Origin: Eledone cirrhosa
Lineage: Eukaryota
Length of the DNA: 64,000 nucleotides
Assembly (NCBI GenBank): GCA_964016885.1
Contig: OZ024753.1
Coordinates: 22,630,001 to 22,694,000, forward strand
Direction of reading: 5' to 3'
Positions within the stretch are counted from its first letter, which is position 1. Each line of letters starts with the position of its first letter. The notes below the pieces were generated by a model. It searched no databases. It was given only the letters and a program-made list of their open reading frames with translations, and was not told the DNA's origin. The translations under genes were made by a program, and so were the position numbers. This document shows positions 17,248-64,000 of this stretch, one piece after another.

Positions 17248-20200
17248 TATTTATTAATTTCAAGAACGTCAGTATTCCGTGTGTCATAAATCTCGATTAT
17301 CATTGGTTCATAGGTTTCAAACGAATCCGCCCACCTCAACGACACCAAACTGAAATTAATATGCATAATACCAATGAAGGAGTGAGAGGGGGAGTGTGAA
17401 CGCTGTGTTCAATAACTATTAACATGTGTGCGTGTGTATGTACGTGCGCGTATGTTTATGTGTGTGTGCGTGCGTGCAGCGTTCCACAGAAAGTAAAAAC
17501 TATCAACATGTGTGAGTGTGTGCGTGTGCGCGTTTCCATGCGTGTATGTGTGTGGCGTTCCACAATCGCCACGCAGTTTATCTGTCTGTGTGCATGTCTG
17601 TCAGTCTAACATACACAGAGTTGTGAAGGGAGTAAATAGGGACCTTTCTTTACATTGCCGGACATCTTTTATATTTATTATTGTGTAATTTTTTGACAAT
17701 TGCTCGAAATGAATACTGATAAAAGCAATTCGACTTTATCAAACGGTGAACTACAGCAGCGACGGCGTGTTGCGATGGTTGAAGATGAACTGGCTGAGCA
17801 TCATCAGCAGATGGCCAGAATTCAGCAGCAACGGCGTGCTGCGATGGGTGAAGAGGAGCTGGCTGAACAGCGCCAGCGCAATACAGAAGTTCAAAGAATG
17901 TGTCGCCAAAGTGCTCCTCATTCCAGTAAAGAGGCTAGAAGGCGAACGAATGATATTAAAATTGGATCATGGTAACCGTGTCATTTTCAGATTGGTGGAC
18001 GAGCAGAGTGTCCACATTGTGGGGCATTGCTTTGGAGGCAGGAAAAGATGTGCTGTCACAAAGGAGCAGTTCAACTAGCACCCTTGCGAATGCCGGATGA
18101 TGAGGAGTCACCGGAGTTTAAAATACTAAGTATGTGGGGTGATCAAGGAGACCGAGGTAGATTACTGCGCAAATATTCGCGGCAAATTAACAATTCATTA
18201 GCTTTAGCATCGCAGAGAGTTGGTGAGATGTTTGAGAGTGAAGCATGGCAACCGAATGTAGTCATTCAAGGCCGTTTGTATCATTTTATCGGTAATTTAA
18301 AAGTTACCCCAGGACAGAGGCCTCGATTCGCTCAAATTTACGTTAACGATCCAGATTATAGTGAATTGGAGGAGGATATCAGGATCGGTTGGATGAAGTT
18401 GCCGGGAAATATAACTGAACTTGAACGGCAAAGGTTAAGTGATTTGATCCGTGATTTGCAAACATGGCTTTGACAGTGTAATCCTTATGTTATGGATTTC
18501 ATGTTGGTGGCTGAACTGCAAAATGTTCAGCAGCAAACATTGGTGATTAAGGCTGACGCAGTGCCAAGGAATCAACACGAACGGCGATATAATGTCCCTG
18601 AAGGATTTCGTGAAGTTGCTGTGTTGATGGACGATAAGCCTGGATCGAGAGATATCGTCCTCAATCGCAGAGACGGTGGTCTCAAGACTATCAATGAGTC
18701 AAATAGGGCATACGATCCATTGCATTATGTTCTTTTATTTCCAAAAGGTGAAAATGGATGGAACATGTCTGTTCATTTAGATGATCATGAGAATCAGCAT
18801 CAACAGAAAGGCGGTAATAGACACAATAATTAGATTCGCGACTTTTACGCGTTCCATTTGAACGAGAGCATTCAACAGAGAAATGCACTATTTCAAGCCA
18901 GCAGATTGTTCTAGGAATACTGTTGTATGGCATTCGCAAAGATCGAATATCAAAGGCTAAATTATATAGCTACACATCAGCAATATATCAGAGCTGAATT
19001 GTATAACAATATACAGGATGCGATAACAGCCGATGATGCCAATTACAAGCAAATTGGTCGACGCATCATTTTGCCATCGTCGTTCATCGGCGGACCGATA
19101 TATATGAACATTCGCTATCAGGATGCAATGGCTATTGTCAGAAAGTTTGGAAAGCCAGATTTGTTTATAACAGTTACATGCAATCCTAAATGGACTGATA
19201 TTAAGGATGCACTTTTGCTAGGACAACAGCCAAAGGACCGTCCTGATATTGTGGCAAGAGTATTCAAAGAATATCTGAAAAAGATAATGGATGATGTGGA
19301 AAAAGAGGGAATCTTTGGAGGTATAGTGGCTTTTACATACGTAATTGAATTCCAAAAAAAGAGGATTCCTACATGCACATTTGCTGATCATTTTACATAG
19401 AGATTGAAAATTGAGATGTGCTGAGGATGTCGACAGCATTGTGTGTGCTGAAAGGCCGGAGAATGAGGCACTACGCAACTGGGTGGCAAAGTCAATGGTG
19501 CATAACCAATGCGGAGTGGCAAATCGGAAAGTACCTTGCATGAAAAATGGTCAATGCAGTAAGCACTTTCCGAAATCTTTTGTCACGAACACATCCTGGA
19601 GCGATGGGGATGCTCATCCCTCATACAGAAGACGGTGGCTTGCCGATGGCGGTTTGGTCTAAAATGTGAATGGTTGACAGATTACAAATCAATGGGTTGT
19701 GCCATACAATCCAGATTTGATTATGAAATATCGTTGTCATATTAATGTGGAAATTTGTAGCTCAGTGAAAGGTTGCAAATATCTATTCAAATATGTTTTC
19801 GAAGGTCATGATCTGGCAATGATCAATGTCAGAAATGAGGAAGCGAACCAAGGAGATGAAGGTGGCAGGTTCCAGGATGTTCGCTCGATTGGATCTAGCG
19901 AAGCTTGCTGGAGATTGTTCGATTTTGATCTCAATGAACGCAAACCCAGCGTTCAGAAGCTAACGGTTCACTGAGAGAACAGGCAAATGGTCTGTTTTCG
20001 GGACACTAGAAGAGGTGTCGAAAGAATTGCTAACGCACCACCTCCTAAGACGGAATTGACTGAGTGGTTCAAGCATAATAGGGAACATGCTTTGAACCCG
20101 GATCAAAGGCGACTCTACTGCGATTTCCCTTCGCACTATACATGGGATAAGAAGGGAAAAAATGGAATGATAGAAAACAAAAGTTGAGATTCATGACTAT

Positions 20201-23200
20201 TGTCCATCCAGCATCTGGTGATGTGTTTTATCTCCGAATTCTGTTGCGTAGTGATTTTTCGAGAGGTAAACAGAGCTTCGCTGATTTGAAAACAATCAAT
20301 GGCGTGGAATATGAAACATACCAGGCTGTGTGTCAGCATCTGGGATTCCTTCAGGATTACGCTGAATGGAATAACGCCATGGAAGCTGCAGGAACAACAC
20401 AGATGCCAGCTCAAATAAGGCAGTTGTTTGTCACGATTCTAGGATTCTGCAACCTGCCGATCCAAGAGAGTTATTTGAACGCCATTGGGGAATTATGGCT
20501 GATAATTTTAGGCATCATCTTTAGGTCGATGATGAAAATTTGATGAAAGCTATTGTTTTGCTCAATATTGAGCAAGTGCTTGAAGTTCATTTCAAATGTT
20601 TAACAGATTTCAATTTGCCAATTCCTGATGAAGAAATGCGGCAACGTGTCTTAGCATTGAACATGAGATTGCAGCTTAGACAGTTGCCACTCGATCGAAG
20701 GGAACTATTTCAGTTTGATCCACTGGAACAGCAACGTATTGTGGATGAATATATGCCAATGTTGACCCAATCTCAGAGAGAATTGGTCGATGGCGTTCTC
20801 CACTCGATTTCCACTAATGAGCAACTTTGTGCTTTCATAGATGCTCCAGGAGGCACCGGAAAGACATTCTGTTTCAACACTATGTTTTCGGCAGTCAGAG
20901 CTCAGAGGAAGATTGCTCTCCCTGTGGCTACTAGTGGGATCGCTGCCACTTTGCTGAGTCGTGGAAGGACCTTCCACTCATGCTTCAAGGCTCCATTGGC
21001 TCCGGATGAGTTGAGTGTCTGTAACATTACAGGACAAAGTGAACTCGCGGGCCTTATACGCAATACGTCTCTGGTTATTTGGGACGAGGCTCCAATGGCA
21101 CACAGATATTTGCTGGAGGCATTGGACAGAACTTTGAGAGATATCTGCGGTAGTGACCTGCCACTCGGTGGTAAGACTATCGTTCTTGGTGGCGATTTCA
21201 GACAGGTGCTACCAATTGTTAGGAATGCTCAAAGATCGCAAATTGTCGATGCATTTCTGAAAAAGTCCCCGTTGTGGCGCCATTTCAGAGTTTTGCGATT
21301 ACGCGACTTCGTATGTTCCGGCAAAACGAAGAGGCTGAGACATAAGGCCGATGGTTGATGTAGTTGGGAAACGATGAATTACCACACGTTGGTGATAATC
21401 AGACTGTAAGAATCCCAGACCATTTGGTCATGCCACTGGACCACCAAGCATTGATTGACTGGGTGTTCCCTAATGTGAATGCTTTTGGGCAGAATATCTC
21501 CTGGAAATCGGAACGCATTATTCTAACTCATACGAATGCAACGGTCGATGAAATAAAATCACAAGTAGCCGGAATGTTTCCTGAGAAGGAATGGTTGACC
21601 GTCAGTGCGGATGCAATGGAGCCTAATCAGCAGAACAATATGGATGTTCCGACTGAGTATCTGAATTCACTTCAAATACCCGGATTTCCCCCACATATTT
21701 TGAGGTTGAAAAATGGTATGCCGATTATATTGCTTAGAAATAGCAATCATAATATGGGTCTTTGCAATGGTACCAGATTGATTGTTGAGAGATTGATTAA
21801 CGGAAGAGTTTTAGAAGCTAAACTCCCAGGCAGAGAGGAATCGGTTCTCATTCCGAGGATCATGATGAGACCAAGTGAAGATCTGCTGCCATTCATTTGG
21901 CAAAGGAGACAGTTTCCAGTCAATTTGGCCTTCTCCATGACTGTCAACAAGGCACAGGGACAGACTTTCAAGCGAGTCGGTGTCTACTTGAATGATCCAG
22001 CATTCAGCCATGGGCAACTGTATGTTGCTGCATCTCGAGTGTGCGATCCTGATGGTATAAAATTTGCAATTGATACCACTAACAGAGGAACAACCCTGAA
22101 TATTGTCTATAATGAAGCTTTAATGCTATCAATAAGCGACGTAAATGATTCGGACATTGGTGTCCTTTGATCAGTATTGTGAGCTTTGACAGAGTTATCA
22201 TTTATGTTCAATGTCATTTAATGTCGTTATGAGCAATAAAAACAAACAAGTATTGGTAAAAATTGCTTTCACTGCTACGTTGCGCAATAAATACCAACAA
22301 GTATTGGTAGAAATTGCCTTCACTGATATGAATATTCGACGTAAATGATTCAGACATTGGTGTCCTTTGATCAGTATTGTGAGCTTTGACAGAGTTATCA
22401 TTTCTGATAACTTAATGAGCAATAAACTTAATGAGCAATAAAAACCAACAAGTATTGGTAGAAATTGCCTTCAAATTTATCGCTTCTGATAGCGGTGGTA
22501 ATAAAACCTCATTATATGCTGAGTCTGGCAAAAAGTTTGGTGACTATGGCCGGCCTGGGCTAGAGTAATATTGAAAAACGATTCTATTTTCGAAGTAGAG
22601 GGATCCGCCATTTGGAGTTCAAACCAGGCCACCTCCCCGAGTTGAACTCTGGGCAATATTGAATGTCTATTACTCAGTGGCTAAGAGCCTGGACATTACT
22701 GAATACATTTTTGTGTCATATAATTTGTTGTTTTATTATTATAGCTGACCACTTCTAGATAAGCATGTTATCCATATCCATATTAATTTAGCATTTGTAT
22801 AAACCATTTCAAGTAAATAGGGACCTTTTTTACATTGACGGACATCTTTTATATTAATTATCTATATCTATATCTATATATAATATAAAAGATTGGAACT
22901 TCCATCATCCTTTTGAGAAACGTGGAACAACCACGTCTATGCGATGATTCACATTTTACAGTCAGGCAGAAGATGAACCATCTCCTAGAGGTCATTATTC
23001 TAGGTGGGAGCACCTAGAATTGTTCATATACTATGCACAAACGGTACAACGAAGAATCTGGTATATCTGGAAGATTTTTTTTACTGTTTTTGGTATCACA
23101 CAGACACCACGGACTCGGCTCATACTGTAACCAGACAAACATCCAATACAGTCATTTTCTCTTTTACCTGTCTTCTCTTATCATCTGTTTACCCGGGCGA

Positions 23201-36669: not shown

Positions 36670-37000
36670 AACACGTAAGCAGGTACTACACACACCTAGG
36701 ACCACATAGAGCTCATAATCGGGTAGCACACACATCTAGGACCACATACAACACATAATCAGATAATACACACATCTAGGACCACATACAACACATAAGC
36801 AGGTAATACACACACCTAGGACCACATACCACACATAAGCAGGTAATACATACATCTAGGACGACATACAACACATAAGGAGGTAATACACACATCTAGC
36901 GCTACATACAACACACAAGCAGGTAATACATACAGCTGGGACCACATCCAATACATAAGCAAGTAATACATACATCTAGGAGCACATACAACACACATTG
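36670..37000. repeat. ~40-bp minisatellite, about 8 copies, within the hAT element
   Basis: Repeated taagcaggtaatacacacatctaggaccacatacaacaca. Confidence 0.85.
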
Positions 37001-37002
37001 TA

Positions 37003-38036
37003 TCATGTGCTACGGACGACACAAGAGCAATGGTCGGCCAACATAAGGGTTTCGTCACTCTTCTGAAGAGAGAAAATCCATCTGTATTTGCTGTTCATTG
37101 TGTCATTCACCGACAACACTTGGCTGCGAAGAAACTCAATGAGCCGCTGAGCAAGTCCTTGCAGGTGGTCATTGATGTCATCAATTTTATCAAACGCCAT
37201 TCCCTCAATGAACGAATTTTTCGGCAACTGTGCCAAGATAATGACGAAGAATTCGTCAAGCTGCTCCTTCATACTGAAGTGAGGTTGCTTTCTTTGAACT
37301 GTTTGACTATCATTGAGTTTCTTCGAGGACGCAACACAGAACTGTACAAGAAAACCCTCGATGTGAGGCAAGACTGCACCTACCTCGCTAACATCTTCGA
37401 CAAATGCAATAGCGTCATTATGGCTTTGCAGGGGAAGAAGATCACATTGCTTAAAGAGTAAGGAGTGCTGTAAAAACATTCCTGGCCAAATAGAATGTCA
37501 TTGAAAGGAATCTTTGTTGACGGGAATTCTATAATTTTCCTAGTGTCGCCAATGTTCAAAACATTGTAAGCGATGACCAACTCTAAATTTATACCGCTCA
37601 CCTCCGTGCACTACAAGACAACATGAAAGAACGGTTTGTTGACCTTTTGCCGATGAACATCCCAATGTGGATAGCAGATCCCTTCATAGCTACCGTCGAC
37701 GATTTAGACGATACATTTCAGGAAGAATTCATTGAACTTCCAGCAGATGACATGATCAAAATTAGATTTCCCAAAATAGGTGAACCCCTTTTTTGGATGC
37801 AAGAGGAAGTTCAGCGTCGATTTCCACTCGTACATGCAGAGGCTAAGAGATTTTCTCTGCCTTTTCCAAGCTCATACTTAGTTGAGAGGAGGTTTGGTGC
37901 TGCTTCCAGACTGCTAAGTATGTCTCGCAACCGCTACAATGTATTTACACGAGGAGATCTCTGGCTACATCTTACGAAAATTCAGCCTCACGTCAAAGAG
38001 TTAGCTAGACTCCATGAAGCTCAAGGGTTCCATTGA
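37003..38036 (+). pseudogene. hAT transposase C-terminal half (SCAND3/ZBED8/GTF2IRD2-like)
   Basis: TDDTRAMVG, HCVIHRQHLAAK (CxxH), LLLHTEVRLLS, PFPSSYLVERRF; stops between 37461 and 37623. Confidence 0.88.
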
Positions 38037-38709: not shown

Positions 38710-38868
38710 ACCCGAGTCCTATCATCTCATTTCTACAGCTGAGTAAACTGGAGCAATGTGAAATAAAGTGTCTTGCTCAAGGAAACAACACATCACCCGG
38801 CCCGAGAATTGAACTCAGAACCTTTCGATTGCAAGCCCAATGCTCTAACCACTAAGCCATGCGCCTTC
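38710..38868 (-). mobile_element. tRNA-derived SINE nested in the hAT element
   Basis: Minus strand ggcgcatggcttagtggttagagc (A box), gagttcaattc (B box), core-like tccttgagcaagacactt. Confidence 0.75.
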
Positions 38869-49005: not shown

Positions 49006-49121
49006 TATATATATATATATATGCATATATATATATGCATATATATATGTATATATATATATATATATGCATATACATATATATATGTGCATATATATAT
49101 TTATATGCATATATATATATA

Positions 49122-49888
49122 CAGCAACACACCCCGTACTACAAGAAAAAAGATTATGTGACCTGAAAAAATTCCTTAAAAAACAAAAATACCCGATGAA
49201 ACTCATCAACGCAGCCATCTCCAAAGCTAAGAACATCCCAATAACAACACTGAGAAAACCAAACCCACAACATAAAAAAGAAAACCCTGCTATCTCTTTT
49301 GTCATCACTCACAACCCAGGGAACATCAACATTGTGAAAACTGCTAAGCAGTATCTCCCGATTCTACAGCAATCTACCAAAATGAATGCACTCTTAAAAA
49401 ACACACAGATAATTTATAGCAAACGCCAAGCACCCAACCGTAAAAAACTAATTACCAAGGCAAAATTTACGACCAACATGGAATCAATGCAAGTGACGGA
49501 ATGCGGGGACCCTAGATGTGGAACCTGTGAACTCATCGAAGAGGGCAAACAGCTGTCCTTAAAAAACCATGATAATTTCAAGGTCAATGCAAACATGAAC
49601 TGCAAAACGAAAAACCTAATATATTGCGCAACATGTCCACAGTGTAAAGAGTATTACATTGGGGAAACCGGAACGGGATTACATGATAGAGTCCGGGTAC
49701 ATAAACAACAAATTAAAGACCCCACAGTCAGAAATACCACATGTAGCGCACACTTTGCATCATGTGGGAAGGGAAAATTCACAATCTTCCCTTTCTTCAA
49801 GATATGGTCGGATAACGAACATTTCCGCAGATATAAAGAAGAATTCTTCATTGAAAAATTTAAACCACTACTGAACACGAAAAAATGA
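49122..49888 (+). pseudogene. 5'-truncated PLE linker plus GIY-YIG endonuclease (Neptune-like, CCHH type)
   Basis: [52 protein letters not shown]; the ORF track's N-terminus is microsatellite. Confidence 0.85.
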
Positions 49889-50179
49889 ATTAACACTCGG
49901 AGGTAAAATTCCATTTTACTACCCCCCCCCCCCTCTTCTTATGTGTACACATGAATATCTGAGTGAACGGTGAGACACACACATATATGTGTGTAGGTAT
50001 GTATGGATGTATGTACGTGTGGGTATATATGTATGTGTGTGTGTGTATGTGTGTGTGTATATATATGTATGGATGTGTGTATATTTGTGTGTGTGTATAT
50101 ATATATATATATATGTGTGTGTATGTGTGTATATATATGTATATGTATATGTATGTATGTGTATGTTTGTATATATATA

Positions 50180-50211
<32 letters not shown>

Positions 50212-50387
50212 GATAATTTAATATATCAACTAACATAAGCGCACAGATGCACGCCCATGCCAGCAAATACACAGGTTATGTCATAGTACCTAGGTGGTTC
50301 AATGCAGGAGAATGCAGAACAATAATATAAAGGACGTAAAATAAGAAAATATTTTTTTTTTAAAAATTTAAAAAAAATTTTTTTCTT

Positions 50388-50497
50388 ACTTAAATTTTCA
50401 CTCCAACTAATTAGTTTCTGCAATGGGATAAAGACAGTTACGTAATCCAACTGTCGAGAATTCATTGCGTCATCAGGAAGTCTATTCTCAGTTAAGT
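50388..50497 (-). ncRNA. Type I hammerhead, array copy
   Basis: Reverse complement of 52950-53059. Confidence 0.8.
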
Positions 50498-50945
50498 CTC
50501 CAGGCAATGCGCGGACACTGGCGGCTCATATAAAAATAATAATAATTCGGTAGATCGAACAGCTTGCGAGGACTGGATTCTATGTACCGAAATTCTCACT
50601 GCTTCAAGTCAAATGGCCGATTCTAAAGAATCAATCACGTGACACAGAGGCTAGTTAGAAGGAATGGGATGGTAAGATGACTGACGCCTACTAACACCCC
50701 AAAAAAAATTTTTTTAGAAGTGGTTTTGACAAGTTTGCTCGACAAATCAGTGATTTGGAGATAAATATAGATAATTTAATATATCAACTAACATAAGCGC
50801 ACAGATGCACGCCCATGCCAGCAAATACACAGGTTATGTCATAGTACCTAGGTGGTTCAATGCAGGAGAATGCAGAACAATAATATAAAGGACGTAAAAT
50901 AAGAAAATATTTTTTTTTTAAAAATTTAAAAAAAATTTTTTTCTT

Positions 50946-51055
50946 ACTTAAATTTTCACTCCAACTAATTAGTTTCTGCAATGGGATAAAGACAGTTACG
51001 TAATCCAACTGTCGAGAATTCATTGCGTCATCAGGAAGTCTATTCTCAGTTAAGT
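50946..51055 (-). ncRNA. Type I hammerhead, array copy
   Basis: Reverse complement of 52950-53059. Confidence 0.8.
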
Positions 51056-51506
51056 CTCCAGGCAATGCGCGGACACTGGCGGCTCATATAAAAATAATAA
51101 TAATTCGGTAGATCGAACAGCTTGCGAGGACTGGATTCTATGTACCGAAATTCTCACTGCTTCAAGTCAAATGGCCGATTCTAAAGAATCAATCACGTGA
51201 CACAGAGGCTAGTTAGAAGGAATGGGATGGTAAGATGACTGACGCCTACTAACACCCCAAAAAAAATTTTTTTAGAAGTGGTTTTGACAAGTTTGCTCGA
51301 CAAATCAGTGATTTGGAGATAAATATAGATAATTTAATATATCAACTAACATAAGCGCACAGATGCACGCCCATGCCAGCAAATACACAGGTTATGTCAT
51401 AGTACCTAGGTGGTTCAATGCAGGAGAATGCAGAACAATAATATAAAGGACGTAAAATAAGAAAATATTTTTTTTTTTTTTTAAATTTAAAAAAAAATTT
51501 TTTCTT

Positions 51507-51616
51507 ACTTAAATTTTCACTCCAACTAATTAGTTTCTGCAATGGGATAAAGACAGTTACGTAATCCAACTGTCGAGAATTCATTGCGTCATCAGGAAGT
51601 CTATTCTCAGTTAAGT
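51507..51616 (-). ncRNA. Type I hammerhead, array copy
   Basis: Reverse complement of 52950-53059. Confidence 0.8.
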
Positions 51617-52063
51617 CTCCAGGCAATGCGCGGACACTGGCGGCTCATATAAAAATAATAATAATTCGGTAGATCGAACAGCTTGCGAGGACTGGATTCT
51701 ATGTACCGAAATTCTCACTGCTTCAAGTCAAATGGCCGATTCTAAAGAATCAATCACGTGACACAGAGGCTAGTTAGAAGGAATGGGATGGTAAGATGAC
51801 TGACGCCTACTAACACCCCAAAAAAAATTTTTTTAGAAGTGGTTTTGACAAGTTTGCTCGACAAATCAGTGATTTGGAGATAAATATAGATAATTTAATA
51901 TATCAACTAACATAAGCGCACAGATGCACGCCCATGCCAGCAAATACACAGGTTATGTCATAGTACCTAGGTGGTTCAATGCAGGAGAATGCAGAACAAT
52001 AATATAAAGGACGTAAAATAAGAAAATATTTTTTTTTTTAAATTTAAAAAAAATTTTTTTCTT

Positions 52064-52173
52064 ACTTAAATTTTCACTCCAACTAATTAGTTTCTGCAAT
52101 GGGATAAAGACAGTTACGTAATCCAACTGTCGAGAATTCATTGCGTCATCAGGAAGTCTATTCTCAGTTAAGT
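52064..52173 (-). ncRNA. Type I hammerhead, array copy
   Basis: Reverse complement of 52950-53059. Confidence 0.8.
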
Positions 52174-52623
52174 CTCCAGGCAATGCGCGGACACTGGCGG
52201 CTCATATAAAAATAATAATAATTCGGTAGATCGAACAGCTTGCGAGGACTGGATTCTATGTACCGAAATTCTCACTGCTTCAAGTCAAATGGCCGATTCT
52301 AAAGAATCAATCACGTGACACAGAGGCTAGTTAGAAGGAATGGGATGGTAAGATGACTGACGCCTACTAACACCCCAAAAAAAATTTTTTTAGAAGTGGT
52401 TTTGACAAGTTTGCTCGACAAATCAGTGATTTGGAGATAAATATAGATAATTTAATATATCAACTAACATAAGCGCACAGATGCACGCCCATGCCAGCAA
52501 ATACACAGGTTATGTCATAGTACCTAGGTGGTTCAATGCAGGAGAATGCAGAACAATAATATAAAGGACGTAAAATAAGAAAATATTTTTTTTTTTTTTT
52601 AAATTTTTAAAAAAAATTTTTTT

Positions 52624-52733
52624 ACTTAAATTTTCACTCCAACTAATTAGTTTCTGCAATGGGATAAAGACAGTTACGTAATCCAACTGTCGAGAATTCA
52701 TTGCGTCATCAGGAAGTCTATTCTCAGTTAAGT
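52624..52733 (-). ncRNA. Type I hammerhead, array copy
   Basis: Reverse complement of 52950-53059. Confidence 0.8.
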
Positions 52734-52949
52734 CTCCAGGCAATGCGCGGACACTGGCGGCTCATATAAAAATAATAATAATTCGGTAGATCGAACAGCT
52801 TGCGAGGACTGGATTCTATGTACCGAAATTCTCACTGCTTCAAGTCAAATGGCCGATTCTAAAGAATCAATCACGTGACACAGAGGCTAGTTAGAAGGAA
52901 TGGGATGGTAAGATAACTGACGCCTACTAACACCGCGCATTGCCTGGAG

Positions 52950-53059
52950 ACTTAACTGAGAATAGACTTCCTGATGACGCAATGAATTCTCGACAGTTGG
53001 ATTACGTAACTGTCTTTATCCCATTGCAGAAACTAATTAGTTGGAGTGAAAATTTAAGT
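52950..53059 (+). ncRNA. Type I hammerhead, array copy (reference)
   Basis: Stem I acttaa/ttaagt plus acttc/ggagt; CTGATGA 52971; stem II gcaatg/cattgc enclosing gacagtt/aactgtc; GAAA 53029; palindrome aactaattagtt; predicted GUU cleavage after 53042. Confidence 0.82.
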
Positions 53060-53510
53060 AAGAAAAAATTTTTTTTTAAATTTAAAAAAAAAAAAAAATA
53101 TTTTCTTATTTTACGTCCTTTATATTATTGTTCTGCATTCTCCTGCATTGAACCACCTAGGTACTATGACATAACCTGTGTATTTGCTGGCATGGGCGTG
53201 CATCTGTGCGCTTATGTTAGTTGATATATTAAATTATCTATATTTATCTCCAAATCACTGATTTGTCGAGCAAACTTGTCAAAACCACTTCTAAAAAAAT
53301 TTTTTTTGGGGTGTTAGTAGGCGTCAGTCATCTTACCATCCCATTCCTTCTAACTAGCCTCTGTGTCACGTGATTGATTCTTTAGAATCGGCCATTTGAC
53401 TTGAAGCAGTGAGAATTTCGGTACATAGAATCCAGTCCTCGCAAGCTGTTCGATCTACCGAATTATTATTATTTTTATATGAGCCGCCAGTGTCCGCGCA
53501 TTGCCTGGAG

Positions 53511-53620
53511 ACTTAACTGAGAATAGACTTCCTGATGACGCAATGAATTCTCGACAGTTGGATTACGTAACTGTCTTTATCCCATTGCAGAAACTAATTA
53601 GTTGGAGTGAAAATTTAAGT
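53511..53620 (+). ncRNA. Type I hammerhead, array copy
   Basis: Same sequence as 52950-53059. Confidence 0.8.
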
Positions 53621-54067
53621 AAGAAAAAAATTTTTTTTAAATTTTAAAAAAAAAATATTTTCTTATTTTACGTCCTTTATATTATTGTTCTGCATTCTCC
53701 TGCATTGAACCACCTAGGTACTATGACATAACCTGTGTATTTGCTGGCATGGGCGTGCATCTGTGCGCTTATGTTAGTTGATATATTAAATTATCTATAT
53801 TTATCTCCAAATCACTGATTTGTCGAGCAAACTTGTCAAAACCACTTCTAAAAAAATTTTTTTTGGGGTGTTAGTAGGCGTCAGTCATCTTACCATCCCA
53901 TTCCTTCTAACTAGCCTCTGTGTCACGTGATTGATTCTTTAGAATCGGCCATTTGACTTGAAGCAGTGAGAATTTCGGTACATAGAATCCAGTCCTCGCA
54001 AGCTGTTCGATCTACCGAATTATTATTATTTTTATATGAGCCGCCAGTGTCCGCGCATTGCCTGGAG

Positions 54068-54177
54068 ACTTAACTGAGAATAGACTTCCTGATGACGCAA
54101 TGAATTCTCGACAGTTGGATTACGTAACTGTCTTTATCCCATTGCAGAAACTAATTAGTTGGAGTGAAAATTTAAGT
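54068..54177 (+). ncRNA. Type I hammerhead, array copy
   Basis: Same sequence as 52950-53059. Confidence 0.8.
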
Positions 54178-54627
54178 AAGAAAAAAATTTTTTTTAAATT
54201 TAAAAAAAAAAAAAATATTTTCTTATTTTACGTCCTTTATATTATTGTTCTGCATTCTCCTGCATTGAACCACCTAGGTACTATGACATAACCTGTGTAT
54301 TTGCTGGCATGGGCGTGCATCTGTGCGCTTATGTTAGTTGATATATTAAATTATCTATATTTATCTCCAAATCACTGATTTGTCGAGCAAACTTGTCAAA
54401 ACCACTTCTAAAAAAATTTTTTTTGGGGTGTTAGTAGGCGTCAGTCATCTTACCATCCCATTCCTTCTAACTAGCCTCTGTGTCACGTGATTGATTCTTT
54501 AGAATCGGCCATTTGACTTGAAGCAGTGAGAATTTCGGTACATAGAATCCAGTCCTCGCAAGCTGTTCGATCTACCGAATTATTATTATTTTTATATGAG
54601 CCGCCAGTGTCCGCGCATTGCCTGGAG

Positions 54628-54737
54628 ACTTAACTGAGAATAGACTTCCTGATGACGCAATGAATTCTCGACAGTTGGATTACGTAACTGTCTTTATCCC
54701 ATTGCAGAAACTAATTAGTTGGAGTGAAAATTTAAGT
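54628..54737 (+). ncRNA. Type I hammerhead, array copy
   Basis: Same sequence as 52950-53059. Confidence 0.8.
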
Positions 54738-55187
54738 AAAAAAATTTTTTTTAAAAATTTAAAAAAAAAAAAAAATATTTTCTTATTTTACGTCCTTTAT
54801 ATTATTGTTCTGCATTCTCCTGCATTGAACCACCTAGGTACTATGACATAACCTGTGTATTTGCTGGCATGGGCGTGCATCTGTGCGCTTATGTTAGTTG
54901 ATATATTAAATTATCTATATTTATCTCCAAATCACTGATTTGTCGAGCAAACTTGTCAAAACCACTTCTAAAAAAATTTTTTTTGGGGTGTTAGTAGGCG
55001 TCAGTCATCTTACCATCCCATTCCTTCTAACTAGCCTCTGTGTCACGTGATTGATTCTTTAGAATCGGCCATTTGACTTGAAGCAGTGAGAATTTCGGTA
55101 CATAGAATCCAGTCCTCGCAAGCTGTTCGATCTACCGAATTATTATTATTTTTATATGAGCCGCCAGTGTCCGCGCATTGCCTGGAG

Positions 55188-55297
55188 ACTTAACTGAGAA
55201 TAGACTTCCTGATGACGCAATGAATTCTCGACAGTTGGATTACGTAACTGTCTTTATCCCATTGCAGAAACTAATTAGTTGGAGTGAAAATTTAAGT
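55188..55297 (+). ncRNA. Type I hammerhead, array copy
   Basis: Same sequence as 52950-53059. Confidence 0.8.
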
Positions 55298-55608
55298 AAG
55301 AAAAAAATTTTTTTTAAATTTTAAAAAAAAAAATATTTTCTTATTTTACGTCCTTTATATATATATATATAGAGAGATATATGTTATATGTGTGAGTATG
55401 TATATGTATGTATCTATATATATGTGTGTGTGTGTATGTATGTGCATATATGTATATATGTGTGTACATATGTGTATGTTTCTGTATGAGTATATGTATG
55501 TATGTATGTAGATGTATGTATATATATGTATATGTATGTATATATGTGTCTTTGTGTGCTTGTGTGTACACATATATATATATATGTATGTGTGTATGTA
55601 TGTGTGTG

Positions 55609-56021
<413 letters not shown>

Positions 56022-56251: not shown

Positions 56252-59200
56252 CTTTTATTTGCCACTAGGGCATCAAAAGTGGGACAAGTACAAAGGGGGG
56301 AGTTTACACAAAAAGGCGTCCTCAATAAGGAGGAGGCAATAACAAAATATAAAAATAAAATAAGATATAACAAAAAATAAAATTTTTAACAAAATCCTCA
56401 ATAGAGAGGAGGCGCCTTGGGGGGTCGCACACACCCCCGAAAAAAGTGTGCAACCCTTCTCCTCAGGAGCACAGAGAAGGGGTGCTCCCTTGGTCTTTCA
56501 TCTTCCTCACCTATAGTCTGATGTAGAGTGAAGGCCCATTCACACGGGCCATTCTCGCCACTTTCACCCATCTTTCATAGAAACGGCTGGGGTGCAGCAC
56601 CTCTCTCTCCATCCTGCTCCTTCTTCCGAAATGATATCGGAAGAAACGGACCAGTTGTTGGCCAGAGAGAAAGGTGCCCGACCTCAGTCCTTTCAGACGC
56701 GTCCACCATACAACCTCTTTCGCCATGGCTATTACGCACAGAAACACCGCCTCTGCTTCATCTTTGAAGGGGGGAGGCGGCTTGATCATTACAATAGACT
56801 CGGTGGTCAACCGGATCGGTCCCACCCTTGACAGCAGTTGTTCGACATAGCCCCACAGATCGGCTACGCCCGAGCAGTGTACTAATGCGTGTGCAACGGT
56901 TTCCTCGTCGCACACGCATCTGGGACAGATCTTTTTGGCGGGGTCCCTACCCGGGCGCCCGTGTCTGTAGAGCCTTTCTCGAACGGGTAAAGCCCCTCGG
57001 TAGCACTGCCAGGCCAGGGACTTCTGGAAGTTGTCCATAGGTCCCGGGCTGAATGTCCTACCGAACAGGCTGGCCAGTTCGTCCTCCTCCATGTCTAGGG
57101 CTTCTCCGAGGGCGTCGTTGCACCTGCTGCGTACCAGCCCTCTATAGAATGTTGCGGTGGAGTCTCCACTGATAACCGGATCCGCCTGCCAGAGGGCGGT
57201 GAGCGCCTGGGCACACTCAGTGTGCCAGGCGCCCAGTTTTCTCGGTCTTTGCTTGACCCAGGATTGCAGCTCGGTGAGTGAGACGAGTCTGGGAAAGGTT
57301 CGTCTCACAAACGAGGCCCACACCGGTTGTCCGGTGAGGAATACGTAGAGGTGCCGTAGCCTTAATGCGTGTTTACGCATCATTAGCCACGGCATCCCCA
57401 GCCCTCCTTTCGAAGGGTGTTGACAGCAGATGGATCTCCTCACCATAGGAGCCCGCCTCTTCCAAAGGAATTGGAAGAGCGCGCGCTCCATCTTGGTGAG
57501 GGTTTCCCTTGGGCAGGGCACTACGGTCAGGCGGTAGTAGATGACGGACGCTATGTAGGTGTTCGCCACCTCCGCCCGACCTTTCAGGGATAGTTTGCAA
57601 CTGGCCCACTTCTGGGTCAGTGCAAACACCCTGTTCGTAACCTCCGCCCAGTTTTTCTCCACCTGGAGGTCCGGTCCGAACCAGACCCCGAGCAACTTCA
57701 CCGGGCCCTCCGTCCAGCGTCCGACGACGCCATCGGAGGGCATCGGTCTGCCCCTCCACGTGCCGAGTTGCAAACCGATCGACTTGTCCCGGTTCAGCTT
57801 AGCCCCTGTGAACTTTTCGTACTCCTCCAGTAAGGTGCCGACCGCCTCGATTTCGGAGGCCGTCGACACCATTACTGTCACGTCATCGGCGTAGGCCGAC
57901 ACCGCTTTCCGCAATCCCGGTTCCAAAGGGATGCCCTGCAACAACTCCAACTTCCGCAGTAGTGGCTCGAGAGTCAACACATACAGAAGGGAGGAGAGAG
58001 GGCACCCTTGTCGGATGGACCGCGCGATTTTGAACGGCTCCGAGAGGTAGCCGTTCACCTTGACCCTAGAGCAGATGCGGCTGCTGTGCATAGCAGTGAT
58101 CCAGCCCCTGAAAACGGGTCCGAAGCCTGCCGCCGCTAGCACCGCATCCAGGTAACCATGGTCGACCCTATCGAACGCCTTAGATTGATCCAAGTTGATC
58201 AGAGCCCCACCAAAGCCGGGTTCGTTCCCAACCCTCTCTATGATGTATCGCATGAGGTGGAGGTTGTCATGGATGGACCTGGACGGGATAGCGCATGTCT
58301 GCGCATCTCCCACCAGGTTGCCCACGACAAGCGCCAACCTCTTTGCTAGCACCTTGGCCAAAATCTGTAACTCTGTATTTAGCAGAGTTATGGGCCTGAA
58401 GTTACTTATTTCGTCCCCCTTGTTCTCGTCCTTCCTCACTAGCGTGACTACGCCCTTGGTCACAGTACAGGGAATTCTCCCGTTCTGTTGCCAGTTGCAG
58501 TAGACCGCCTCGAGGAGATCGGGGAACAAGTCCGGCATAGCTAGATATAATTCGTAAGGAAGACCATCGAGACCCGGGGATTTGCGTTTGCCGCATTGGC
58601 TCAGCACGTCCTCTATCTCAGCGGCCGAAATCGGCTCCTCGCAGGACTTCGCCTCCCTGTCCGAGAGGCGCGGCAGGCCGTCGAGGTATGGACCGAAGTC
58701 CACGTTCCCAACCGGCTCCCCGCCCCTCCCGAACAGTCGGGCAAAGTGCCTTTGAAAGGCCTCACACATCTGCTTAGGCTCAAGAATCGCCCGTCCATCC
58801 AGGTCTCGCAAAGACCGGATGGTGGATTTAGTTCCACTGTTGGCCTCTGTCACGCGGGCCCAGCTAACAGCTTTGGTCCCCTCGTTCCCTAGAGCACGTA
58901 TTTTACTTCGGACAACGCAGCCTTCGTGCTTCGCGTCGAAAAACTGGCTCAAAGCCGTTCTCGACGCTAGCACTCTGGCCACGTCGCCGCTTCTAATTGC
59001 CTCTTCTACTCTATCTATTAGCTCCCTTTCCTTCCTATTCCTATCCGCAGCTAGAACCTTACTAAATTCTATCGAGACTACTCTAATCTCTCTCTTTAGA
59101 GATACCCACCACCTGCTGTTGACGATCGCTCCAGTCAACCGTTCCTTAACTAACGTACTAATCCGATTCCTGTAGGCTCTACTTGCCGGCAAGGACAAGT

Positions 59201-59381
59201 TGAGCTTCCAGTAACCGGGGCCCTGTCTATGAGTTCTGTCAAGGTTGACCATGCAGGTCACTAATTTGTGGTCTGAATAGCCAACCATGCGCATTTTTGG
59301 ACAACTTAAAAAGTCCTTATCCTTAATTCTAACTAAGAACCTATCTAGGTACGACCTAGATGATCCGCTACGATTTGCCCA

Positions 59382-59384
<3 letters not shown>
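56249..59384 (-). mobile_element. 5'-truncated Tx1/L1-clade non-LTR retrotransposon in (TA)n
   Basis: GC-rich island; ORF2; 3' UTR ending gcaaataaaagaaa-(TA)n; second 3' copy at 16470. Confidence 0.92.
56511..59294 (-). CDS. Tx1-like ORF2: end of APE endonuclease, reverse transcriptase, CCHC zinc knuckle (frame open upstream to ~59384)
   Basis: SRSYLDR and SDH (APE), GPGYWKLN, KSPGLDG, FRPITLLN, LDQSKAFDRVDH, RQGCPLS, YADD, CPRC...ETVAHALVHC; no stops in 927 aa. Confidence 0.93.
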   Translation of the reverse strand: MRMVGYSDHKLVTCMVNLDRTHRQGPGYWKLNLSLPASRAYRNRISTLVKERLTGAIVNSRWWVSLKREIRVVSIEFSKVLAADRNRKERELIDRVEEAIRSGDVARVLASRTALSQFFDAKHEGCVVRSKIRALGNEGTKAVSWARVTEANSGTKSTIRSLRDLDGRAILEPKQMCEAFQRHFARLFGRGGEPVGNVDFGPYLDGLPRLSDREAKSCEEPISAAEIEDVLSQCGKRKSPGLDGLPYELYLAMPDLFPDLLEAVYCNWQQNGRIPCTVTKGVVTLVRKDENKGDEISNFRPITLLNTELQILAKVLAKRLALVVGNLVGDAQTCAIPSRSIHDNLHLMRYIIERVGNEPGFGGALINLDQSKAFDRVDHGYLDAVLAAAGFGPVFRGWITAMHSSRICSRVKVNGYLSEPFKIARSIRQGCPLSSLLYVLTLEPLLRKLELLQGIPLEPGLRKAVSAYADDVTVMVSTASEIEAVGTLLEEYEKFTGAKLNRDKSIGLQLGTWRGRPMPSDGVVGRWTEGPVKLLGVWFGPDLQVEKNWAEVTNRVFALTQKWASCKLSLKGRAEVANTYIASVIYYRLTVVPCPRETLTKMERALFQFLWKRRAPMVRRSICCQHPSKGGLGMPWLMMRKHALRLRHLYVFLTGQPVWASFVRRTFPRLVSLTELQSWVKQRPRKLGAWHTECAQALTALWQADPVISGDSTATFYRGLVRSRCNDALGEALDMEEDELASLFGRTFSPGPMDNFQKSLAWQCYRGALPVRERLYRHGRPGRDPAKKICPRCVCDEETVAHALVHCSGVADLWGYVEQLLSRVGPIRLTTESIVMIKPPPPFKDEAEAVFLCVIAMAKEVVWWTRLKGLRSGTFLSGQQLVRFFRYHFGRRSRMEREVLHPSRFYERWVKVARMARVNGPSLYIRL

Positions 59385-59435
<51 letters not shown>

Positions 59436-60457
59436 GCCTCTCTCTCTCTATATATATATATGTATATGTATGTGTGTATGTGTGTGTGTGCGTATGCATG
59501 TATGTGTGAACGGAGGTATATATACGGACATATGTATATGTGTACACGTGTGTGTGTGTATGTGTACATGTGTGTGTGTGTGTGTGTATGTGTGCGTGTA
59601 TGTGTATATATGTATATTTAGTTATGAATCTTTATGTGTGTATATGTATGTATATGTATGTATGTATATATATATATATACCCAAGTGGAGGTATGAGTA
59701 CATATTCGTGTGTGTACGTATGTGTATATGTGTTTTTATATGTGTCTTTATATGTTTTTGTGTATATATGTGGATGTATATGTACATGGGTGTGTGATTG
59801 ATGGTGTGTGCCTATATATTCCTACATATACCCGTGTGTGTATGTACGTATATACGCACATATGTGTGTGTTGAACAAAGGACTAATTATGGGATGGACG
59901 TAGAAAAATTCTTCAGAAAAAAATAATTGTTTACAAACTTGGCAGGTGCGATTTGCCTGTGACCGTTCTCAACACAAAGGAATACTAAAAGCTTTTTCCC
60001 CTGAATAAAGGAATTTTTCGAGAATGACCGGGGCAGGCCGCACTTGCTACATTTCTCCCCACCCAACCCTACTCACCGTCTCAACTCATTACTGCTATTA
60101 ACACTTTTTCAACACACCTACACCCATACACTTATTAAAGGGGGAGAAAAAAAAAACCCTACCACACCACAGACATGTTAAATCATTATATATAGAACAA
60201 CACACCACATACACATCAGTTTGACAAGCGCACCTCAGCGTGAAAGGTCGTTCTAAAAACGAAACAATACCTCCTACGTTAACCAAGAACTCCTAAGACC
60301 TAACCAACAACCAACAACTTAATTTATAAAATAATTTTTTTAAGGAAAAAAAAAAAAATATTTTTCTAATCCGCAAAAAAATTATTTTTGGATATTGTGA
60401 AGAAAATAAATTTGTTGAAAACACAAGTGAAGCCATTTTTTCTTCCCCCCTGTCTTA

Positions 60458-60490
<33 letters not shown>

Positions 60491-61905: not shown

Positions 61906-63298
61906 TAAAACCACGGAAACGAATTCACTTCTACTTAGTTTTGATGTGGTAAACCTTTACACCAACATTACACATGTTTTAGGAATAAAGGCGGTTAAAT
62001 ACTGGGTGGAAAAACATAGAGAAGTAATTCCCATCAGATTCACAGGACCATTTATATTAGACGCAGTTAAACTTATTCTGGAAAACAACACTTTCTTCTT
62101 CAATGGAAAGAATTACATCCAAATTAGAGGCACAGCGATGGGAACGAAGTTTTCTCCCGTTTACGCGAACTCTGTAATGGGATACTTAGAACAACAACTC
62201 TACCAAGAAATAGAGGAAAATATAGTACTGACTTTAGAAAGCACATTGAAAAATCTTGGAAGAGATACCTTGACGACTGTTTCATCATCTGGCCAGAATC
62301 TCTAGATACTCTGGATGAGTTCAATATCCTCCTGAATAACCTACACCCATCTCTTCAATTCACAAAAGAGATGAGTAGGACCAAATTACGATTCCTAGAT
62401 ATAATGATAATCAAAAACGACACCATCATCACCACGGTTATATATTATAAACACACAGACACCCATCAATATCTGAATTTTAAGTCGTGCCATCCACCTC
62501 ATACAAAACGCAACATCCCATAATACCTAGCCAGAAGAATTTGTACCATTGTAGAAGATACGAATACCAGGTACAAACGCCTAACAGAACTAAGAGAATT
62601 TTTGCTCAAACAAAAATACCCATCTCTACTTATAGAAAATGGCATACAGCGGGCTATAAAATACCTATACAACAACTTAGGACAACCCAAGGAAGAAGAA
62701 ACCAAGAACTGGTCATACCATTTATAATGACACACAACCCATGTCACCAGAATATCTTCAACACTGCCAAAGCAAACCTACCGATCATTGCTCAAAGTAA
62801 TGAATTAAAAGGCTTAATCACAGATCGATCTTTGACTCTTAGTAAAAGACAGCCAAAAATTTGAAGCAATTACTAACAAAAGCAAAGTTTGACCTTAACA
62901 ACAAAGACGAATCATTCACAGTATCTAAATGCAATGATAGTCGATGCGGCACATGTCAATCCATACACGCCGGTCAATATATGAAAACAAAAACTGTAAA
63001 AATATTCCCAAATGCAAATATGAACTGCAAAAGCAGAAATCTAATTTACTGCATTAAATGAAGAACTATATGTCGGTCAAACTGGAAATGCACTATCGGA
63101 ACGTGCACGGGTACACCGTCAGCAAATCAGAGACCCAAATGTCCGTCAGATACCCCTAAGTAACCATCTAGCAACATGTGGTCAGGGAATATTTATAATA
63201 TTCCCATTCTACAAATTACACAGCCCAAGTGAAATCAAGAGAGAAATCAAAGAAAATAATTTTATTGATAAATTCAAACCCAAGCTAAATGAACAATA
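61901..63298 (+). pseudogene. PLE RT, thumb and GIY-YIG endonuclease (Neptune-like), 5'-truncated, several frameshifts and stops
   Basis: SFDVVNLYTNI, GTAMGTKFSPVYAN, WKRYLDD, FLDI, CNDSRCGTC, NMNCKSRNLIYCIK, YVGQTG. Confidence 0.9.
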
Positions 63299-63361
63299 AT
63301 AACGCTTAGGGGTATTACTTCTACTATGACTATGACTACGACCATGGCGACTACGACCACT

Positions 63362-63431
<70 letters not shown>

Positions 63432-63509
63432 GTGATGTTGATTGTGATGATTACTAGAAAATGCTATTTTCATCATTTCTAAAAATAGCAAAACAATTGA
63501 TGCTTTGGA

Positions 63510-63690
63510 TAGGAACAATTATTGGTCGTTAGACATGCTCAACCAATCGTGACGCTTAAACCAATCAGCTTTAGTAATTCAGTGAAACTACACACCGATT
63601 GGTCGAAATACAGTTTGCAAGATTTAGCATTCTAGAGCCACTTTTCACTGTATATAAGGTACAACATTTACCCATCTCATTACAGTTGAA
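63510..63690 (+). promoter_or_regulatory. Candidate Pol II promoter of the pLTR
   Basis: Four CCAAT/ATTGG boxes between ~63520 and 63602, TATATAA at 63651, Inr-like TCATT about 28 nt downstream. Confidence 0.55.
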
Positions 63691-63720
63691 AATTGCAAAC
63701 TTGACTGTCACCACAGAATA

Positions 63721-63759
63721 TGAACCTGAAGATTGCGAAAGCATGAAAGTACTTGTTCA
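63721..63759 (+). ncRNA. Minimal type I hammerhead in pLTR
   Basis: tgaac CTGAAGA t tgc gaaa gca t GAAA gtac TT gttca; palindrome aagtactt; GNRA-capped stem II. Confidence 0.82.
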
Positions 63760-64000
63760 ATTAACACTTAACATTTAATATTCTACCATACTATTTCATT
63801 ATACCATTATAATTTTAAAGGATTGTAAATAAAACAAGTAAATCAGACAAAGTTGGAATACCTCTTATTAATATAATTTTCTATACACAATCATACACAC
63901 CCGTGTATATTTATCTATTTCGGTTGAGGGTAGGCGGTCCGCATGTTACCACTGCGCAAGCAGAGGTCACCTAAGGGCTGCCTGTCCACAATTGACGAAA

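Follow-up and report, generated by a model that had tools for sequence, protein, structure and literature searches.

What is the two-armed array that occupies positions 50208–55360 of a 64,000-nucleotide stretch of the Eledone cirrhosa genome (hereafter the window; assembly GCA_964016885.1, contig OZ024753.1, positions 22,630,001 to 22,694,000, forward strand), and how was it laid down? An original prediction, made from the letters of the window, had described a head-to-head tandem array of a non-coding unit with a hammerhead ribozyme and had proposed a retrozyme or circular-RNA replicon. We are confident that the array belongs to a young variant of the retrozymes which bears a clear insertion footprint of Penelope-like elements (PLEs). 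It is also probable that the array arose by a single insertion of a repeat that is young, dispersed, non-coding and 557 nt long, that carries a predicted hammerhead, and that was likely mobilized by a PLE and likely copied round a monomeric, sometimes dimeric, RNA circle.

The predicted layout was recovered in full: 9.2 near-identical units of 557–561 bp, five hammerhead motifs on each strand, a head-to-head arrangement and (TA)n at both ends. The ∼ 9.2 units divide into 4.9 in the left arm and 4.3 in the right, and the 5′ ends of the arms meet mid-array. Positions within the unit are numbered q1–q557, where q1 is the first base past the predicted cut and window positions 53604–54160 serve as reference.

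50208–52934, minus strand: left arm, 4.9 tandem units; outer (3′) end at the long site, ∼ q197–q201; inner end at q264.
52933–55360, plus strand: right arm, 4.3 tandem units; inner end at q448; outer (3′) end at the short site, ∼ q77–q79.
52933–52934, no strand assigned: head-to-head junction with a 2-nt overlap; does not form a perfect fold-back (phases 264 and 448).
53604–54160, plus strand: 557-nt reference monomer, bounded by two successive predicted cuts, 36% GC.
49986–50207, no strand assigned: left (TA)n/(TG)n microsatellite target, within the 3′ untranslated region (UTR) of a coding element, PLE-1.
55356–55677, no strand assigned: right (TA)n-rich microsatellite flank.

The ten CTGATGA cores lie at 52971, 53532, 54089, 54649 and 55209 on the plus strand and at 52712, 52152, 51595, 51034 and 50476 on the minus strand. 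Full core-to-core units (n = 8) measure 557–561 bp and differ solely in their A/T tracts; the innermost partial copy of the left arm carries one substitution. The longest ATG-initiated open reading frame (ORF) of the circularized unit encodes 34 amino acids, in agreement with the claim that it holds no credible ORF. Both array ends do lie in (TA)n as proposed, but they do not merely fade into it: the array stops at two fixed, differing positions of the unit.

The repeat is dispersed. An exact 29-nt core pattern has 812 matches in the 3.0-Gb genome. From a DNA search that gave 465 candidate places, 40 arrays were scored as a first sample (the window and 39 others, on 17 contigs including that of the window). 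A second sample comprised 20 further loci, 19 of them chosen by position on one contig, solitary hits included. As had been predicted, the arrays are scattered (17 contigs among the first 40), start at varying inner phases and are flanked by (TA)n, and the two-armed ones show the PLE-style inversion. None of the 60 loci was continuous with a PLE ORF encoding reverse transcriptase (RT) and GIY-YIG endonuclease; the neighbouring PLE fragments are separate insertions. In none of these 60 loci does a copy act as the pseudo-long terminal repeat (pLTR) of a coding PLE, the outcome that would have spoken against a retrozyme. A sister family B (542 nt; 2167 first-look candidates) is 66% identical to the family of the window, here called A, and is linked to it by intermediate subfamilies of 82–93% identity.

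The strongest pattern lies in the outer ends, which occur only at ∼ q79 and ∼ q201, the exact base being blurred by TA overlap. All 26 two-armed arrays of the first sample are head-to-head and every one has one q79 and one q201 end; its 14 one-armed arrays end at q79 (10) or q201 (4). The second sample gave one end of each kind in 9/9 two-armed loci, besides 10 one-armed loci and an older two-armed copy that was left out of this count and likewise has one end of each kind. The rule therefore holds in 35/35 two-armed loci of family A, for which independent choice of ends would give a probability of 0.5^35 = 3e-11. (TA)n was present at 64/64 displayed outer ends; the first sample has 66 such ends, of which the other two were not displayed. 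In family B (25 distinct loci) 13/13 two-armed loci combine one q80 with one q198 end; nine are one-armed and three undetermined. Coding PLEs of the same genome follow the rule as well, PLE-1 (16 stretches) in 7/7 loci for which both ends were read, at an offset of 35 nt, and PLE-2 in 11/11 (offset ∼ 55–60 nt), and their ends also run into (TA)n. Arm length does not differ with end type (p = 0.41), nor are the lengths of the two arms correlated (rho = 0.09; n = 26). Target-site duplications are undefinable within (TA)n.

53682–53804, plus strand: 'tail' segment between the two end sites, q79–q201 in the reference unit; holds two hairpins, the short one near-invariant and the longer one covarying.

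Compensatory changes in the longer hairpin were seen among eight sequences, and we infer that the PLE protein binds and primes within this segment. In work with a purified PLE, both strands of AT-rich DNA were cut and extended; synthesis began at two internal RNA sites, which delimit the tail, and the start site did not differ between strands in vitro (PMC11167929, as far as its available text goes). Genomic PLE copies consist of an inverted, 5′-truncated copy with a 30–40-bp tail that is often present at one end only (available text of PMC8557442). The two-site pattern is the known Penelope tail, extended here to ∼ 120 nt. Since the start sites show no strand preference in vitro, the strict use of one of each, as seen in the genome, calls for a mechanistic explanation. 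With two fixed ends, the involvement of PLEs is better supported than the original prediction had claimed.

52950–53059, plus strand: first of five plus-strand type I hammerhead motifs; core at 52971, predicted cut after 53042.
52624–52733, minus strand: first of five minus-strand hammerhead motifs; core at 52712.

The hammerhead sequence is identical in 10/10 window copies. In it, CUGAUGA is followed by an extra C and by a 6-bp stem II whose first pair is G-C and which has an inner hairpin; then come an extra A, GAAA and a 12-nt palindrome that ends in GUU (53040–53042, where the original prediction had placed it); stem III comprises three pairs around the palindrome, which forms stem III/loop 3. 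The motif had been called a complete type I hammerhead. It is indeed found in every unit and its stems covary, but the core is non-canonical and of PLE type; PLE-type hammerheads cleave weakly and as dimers (PMC4209133). Both extra bases are conserved in 10/10 aligned sequences, and other, unrelated motifs of this genome, that of PLE-2 among them, also have an unpaired base on either side of stem II. Across ten related sequences 98.5% of 130 cells in stems I–III are paired, compared with 25–53% in slid controls, and 3/13 stem pairs changed on both sides; because the sequences are related, no true p-value attaches to this covariation. The Rfam hammerhead models gave no hit at gathering score in the window and none at E ≤ 10 in 701 bases. 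Folding of the isolated hammerhead stretch is no better than that of shuffled sequences (z = −0.54), while the circular fold of the whole 557-nt unit is branched and 64% paired (z = −3.3). The term replicon, in the sense of RNA-to-RNA replication, finds no support, as each unit has the motif in one polarity and its fold is branched, not rod-like.

What served as template can be read from variants shared within arrays. Several arrays carry variants present in every copy and in both arms. All 15 genome-wide matches to T316G lie in one array. A381T occurs eight times genome-wide, seven times in both arms of one array and once in an older subfamily with another haplotype. C229T is confined to array L022 (4/4), where it marks alternate copies in both arms; two more markers alternate there, in the same phase in both arms, and both outer ends fall in the same unit type. 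Such array-private variants, together with the L022 alternation, are most simply read as repeated copying of one short RNA, which would be a circle of one monomer or, in the case of L022, of a dimer. By this evidence from DNA the arrays were probably copied from circles. The rolling-circle copying originally proposed is thus favoured by the variant patterns, although two arrays misfit its simplest form. A phase analysis by homopolymer lengths gave mostly noise. Within hairpin A-tracts, A>G changes affect all or alternate units in 6/48 arrays, and T>C changes in the same tracts affect one whole array and part of another; outside these tracts 0/13 array-wide substitutions are A>G. This pattern is a weak hint of RNA editing.

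Several observations weigh against copying from hammerhead-made circles. The misfitting arrays are L032 and that of the window, whose arms share rare unit types in differing order, so that a single monomer circle does not suffice and a mixed multimer template or later conversion is needed. The unit order of the window fits a five-unit cycle, but it is read from A/T-tract variants, which are mutable, and conversion at a later time is equally likely. This one assembly could also lack a source array from which the private variants came. The hammerhead has an extra A in front of GAAA, its covariation comes from no more than three to four subfamilies, and its active monomer fold (−15.4 kcal/mol) lies 6.5 kcal/mol above the best fold (−21.9 kcal/mol). 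Because of this gap, cleavage is predicted to be slow and dimer-dependent, which would leave multimers. Of nine predicted Xenopus retrozymes, eight did not cleave in vitro (10.64898/2026.07.22.740005), and the anole PLE inserts with no need for its hammerhead (PMC11167929), as reported in the portions of these papers available. Finally, four young PLE families with long open frames (54 fetched stretches: 16, 18, 10 and 10) have no similarity to the unit beyond A/T tracts. A 13/14 match to the PLE-2 terminal repeat was discarded, as 67/200 shuffles did as well.

In one alternative, a PLE primes doubly on an uncut linear multimer read through an existing array, with template jumps. No circle would be needed, the hammerhead would be a passenger and the element would be a non-autonomous PLE reduced to its terminal repeat. 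PLE insertion in vitro used unprocessed RNA (PMC11167929) and head-to-tail multicopy non-autonomous PLEs have been described (PMC8557442; both in available part). The non-canonical core, the disfavoured monomer fold and the shared but reordered units of L032 and the window also suit such a template. However, the assembly offers no other source for array-wide variants, one private variant is carried by 15 copies in a single arm, and the core and stems of the hammerhead are kept across subfamilies that are only 66% alike; moreover, internal priming would be expected to shorten a linear template in every round. We regard this alternative as unlikely. The out-of-order sharing could also stem from expansion of short insertions in place, with homogenization by unequal crossing-over and arm-to-arm conversion, and shared variants would then be uninformative about an RNA template. 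Local amplification is the model in the preprint 10.64898/2026.07.22.740005 (available text), and in L027 two neighbouring copies of one arm share C361G. Yet the arrays are very young and keep exact ends, 40 substitutions confined to single copies have not been homogenized, and the alternation in L022 runs in the same phase in both arms, which together make expansion in place highly improbable.

The inner ends speak to how the second arm arose. In the 21 of 26 first-sample junctions that could be placed (five anchors failed, that of the window among them), the 42 inner ends are scattered over the unit and none lies at the predicted cut. Run-off on a cut linear monomer, which would place inner ends at the cut, was rejected (3/42 in q1–q20, p = 0.19; none at q1). 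Inner ends of one-armed arrays appear to cluster at q418–q424, in an AT-rich stretch able to pair with (TA)n; the cluster is not significant in two-armed arrays (5/42 in q405–q440, p = 0.13). Most junctions join unrelated phases with 0–5 nt of overlap, and overlaps of ≥ 2 nt (7/18, three inserted-base junctions left out, versus 18% expected; p = 0.03) are slightly over chance. Self-priming by fold-back, a model put forward for Penelope copies that lie head-to-head and have palindromic junctions (PMC3846280, available text), would make the second arm with no second target primer. It would fit the two near-mirror junctions among 35 (L154, q480/482; L050, q208/200), but by our estimate ∼ 1.3/35 are expected by chance (21/557 each), and the unrelated phases of most junctions speak against it. 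Both arms of L040 bear a marker at three units from the outer end, and the shorter arm reaches q201, past the q79 end of the longer arm, of which it cannot be a copy, albeit on one marker only. Fold-back is therefore a highly improbable origin. That the palindrome is a long-read fold-back or an assembly artefact might be suspected from arms that are 99% identical, with A/T-tract differences that could be read errors. We find this hardly credible, as the flanks are unmirrored, the host PLE resumes colinearly past the array, the ends differ by a fixed rule in 35/35 loci, and the layout recurs in an older, diverged remnant.

Copying from circles thus remains the reading we prefer, and the following scheme would account for it. 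The repeat would be transcribed, and its RNA would cleave itself slowly, probably as a dimer, and then ligate into circles. A PLE protein would cut (TA)n DNA, and each of the two DNA ends would prime reverse transcription at one of two fixed RNA sites ∼ 120 nt apart, both ends being held on one RNA by a single protein complex. Copying would likely run round a monomeric or sometimes dimeric circle, after which the two growing cDNAs would be joined mid-array, often with 0–5 nt of overlap; where one cDNA rejoined the target instead, a one-armed array would result. In the strictest form of this scheme, one PLE complex would set both ends of cut (TA)n on the two sites of a single hammerhead-made circle, monomer or dimer, two RTs would run round it and the arrays would be a record of dual-primed rolling-circle retrotransposition; the structured 120-nt tail would be the recognition element, and the hammerhead would be functional with an unpaired base on either side of stem II. 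We put forward this combination tentatively, as it is somewhat likelier to need correction in some part than to hold throughout.

The surroundings of the array in the window are themselves rich in mobile elements.

49120–50190, plus strand: first part of the host PLE-1, a 5′-truncated coding PLE (GIY-YIG, PF01541) broken in its 3′ UTR; not homologous to the unit.
59411–60462, plus strand: second part of the host PLE-1, with the remainder of the 3′ UTR and the terminal repeat, separated from the first part by 9.2 kb of nested insertions.
55674–55934, no strand assigned: older, short two-armed remnant of the same family, 76–82% identical, with one short and one long end; hammerhead lost.

The array was inserted into a truncated PLE-1, within the microsatellite of its 3′ UTR, and is not the terminal repeat of that element. 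PLE-1 is a young coding family whose intact copies have a 796-aa frame and an overlapping upstream frame of ∼ 434 aa; its 3′ UTR contains a long microsatellite that gathers nested insertions, and a pattern search found no hammerhead motif in PLE-1. Nested in the same microsatellite is a GC-rich, 978-aa frame of a retrotransposon that lacks long terminal repeats (non-LTR; 56511–59447, minus strand; RVT_1, zf-RVT). PLE-2 (61907–63918; L131–L148) is very young, with a 775-aa frame and many near-identical copies, and carries a small hammerhead with an unpaired U on either side of stem II. Fragmented frames at 17713–22170 (plus strand), which resemble a Helitron Rep/helicase, and broken frames at 36967–38036 (plus strand), perhaps of a hAT-type transposase, lie elsewhere in the window, as does a partial tRNA-like match (38802–38859, minus strand; Rfam RF00005, 36.3 bits), possibly the head of a short interspersed element.

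Each unit has an AT-rich box shortly 5′ of the hammerhead and a 16-nt block (53922–53937 in the reference unit) that reads CACGTG and then TGATTG; the block is identical in families A and B amid divergent surroundings. We assume that it resembles an E-box/CCAAT promoter element. A trace of a third family (L103:3341-3465) has yet another inner-hairpin sequence in loop II, and at least four other hammerhead-like families are present in the fetched flanks (L115:1005-1153, L127:733-908, L124:617 and 2819, L139:991-1043), several of them paired on opposite strands. Public runs X10, X13, X14 and X15, of unrecorded kind, contain contigs with the unit or diverged relatives, which have no bearing on expression. 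To judge from these contigs, the family occurs beyond this assembly or species, their independence from the sample of the window not being established. Four public runs that we guessed to be RNA gave A/T-tract matches alone.

How does the family compare with known systems? Our literature search, which left subscription journals mostly uncovered, found no description of two-armed retrozyme insertions with two fixed ends; in the text available, the word 'inverted' is absent from PMC7229834, and 'tail' and 'head-to' from 10.64898/2026.07.22.740005. The comparisons below likewise draw on the available portions of the cited papers. Metazoan non-LTR retrozymes (PMC7229834; 10.64898/2026.07.22.740005) are also dispersed tandem non-coding units with one type I hammerhead motif each and a GC content < 45%. 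They share a palindromic stem III, as in dimer-requiring amphibian motifs, and they co-occur with PLEs; their circles have been proposed as templates for multimeric cDNA. They differ in that the motif of the present family is of PLE type with two extra core bases, and in that expression and circles have been demonstrated there, whereas this family is known from DNA. The unit falls within the sequence definition of the 2026 preprint, which admits a canonical or minimal motif, but outside the canonical-hammerhead part of the 2020 definition (PMC7229834). Nor is it unusually large, as had been supposed: 557 nt lies within the 51–972 bp of the preprint, though above the 170–400 nt of PMC7229834. 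That PLEs act as helpers and that multimeric cDNA is made from circles has been proposed, not shown (PMC7229834, 10.64898/2026.07.22.740005, PMC7761336), and the insertion mechanism of retrozymes remains to be elucidated (10.64898/2026.07.22.740005). The element kind and the PLE footprint were each known already, which, together with the restriction to DNA, tempers the value of the family.

With the minimal hammerheads of PLEs (PMC4209133) the motif shares an extra base between positions 9 and 10.1, a G10.1-C11.1 pair, a long stem II, a short stem I and a palindromic loop 3. It differs by a second unpaired base between C11.1 and G12, or else a C-A mismatch that closes stem II, and by a further hairpin in loop II. 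A literature search for the extra A gave no specific precedent. Pairs of hammerheads on opposite strands, 100–700 bp apart, have been noted for PLEs in the same paper. Non-autonomous Chlamys elements such as MRC1 (PMC8557442) generally resemble the 3′ end of an autonomous partner and belong to clades without canonical hammerheads; this family, in contrast, has no similarity to four PLE families of its genome. Endonuclease-bearing PLEs (PMC11167929, PMC8557442, PMC3846280) offer the closest match in insertion pattern, with a head-to-head inverted copy, insertion into AT-rich or (TA)n DNA, a pair of internal end sites located downstream of the hammerhead and a tail on one side only. Unlike them, the family encodes neither RT nor GIY-YIG, has a tail of ∼ 120 nt as opposed to 30–40 nt and reaches up to 15 whole units per arm, with no parent found among the four PLE families. 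The family yields predictions at the level of the nucleotide, namely that each target strand has its own start site, two in all, and that the template is circular and may be a dimer, and provides a small, protein-free substrate with which to study why PLEs make inverted copies and tails.

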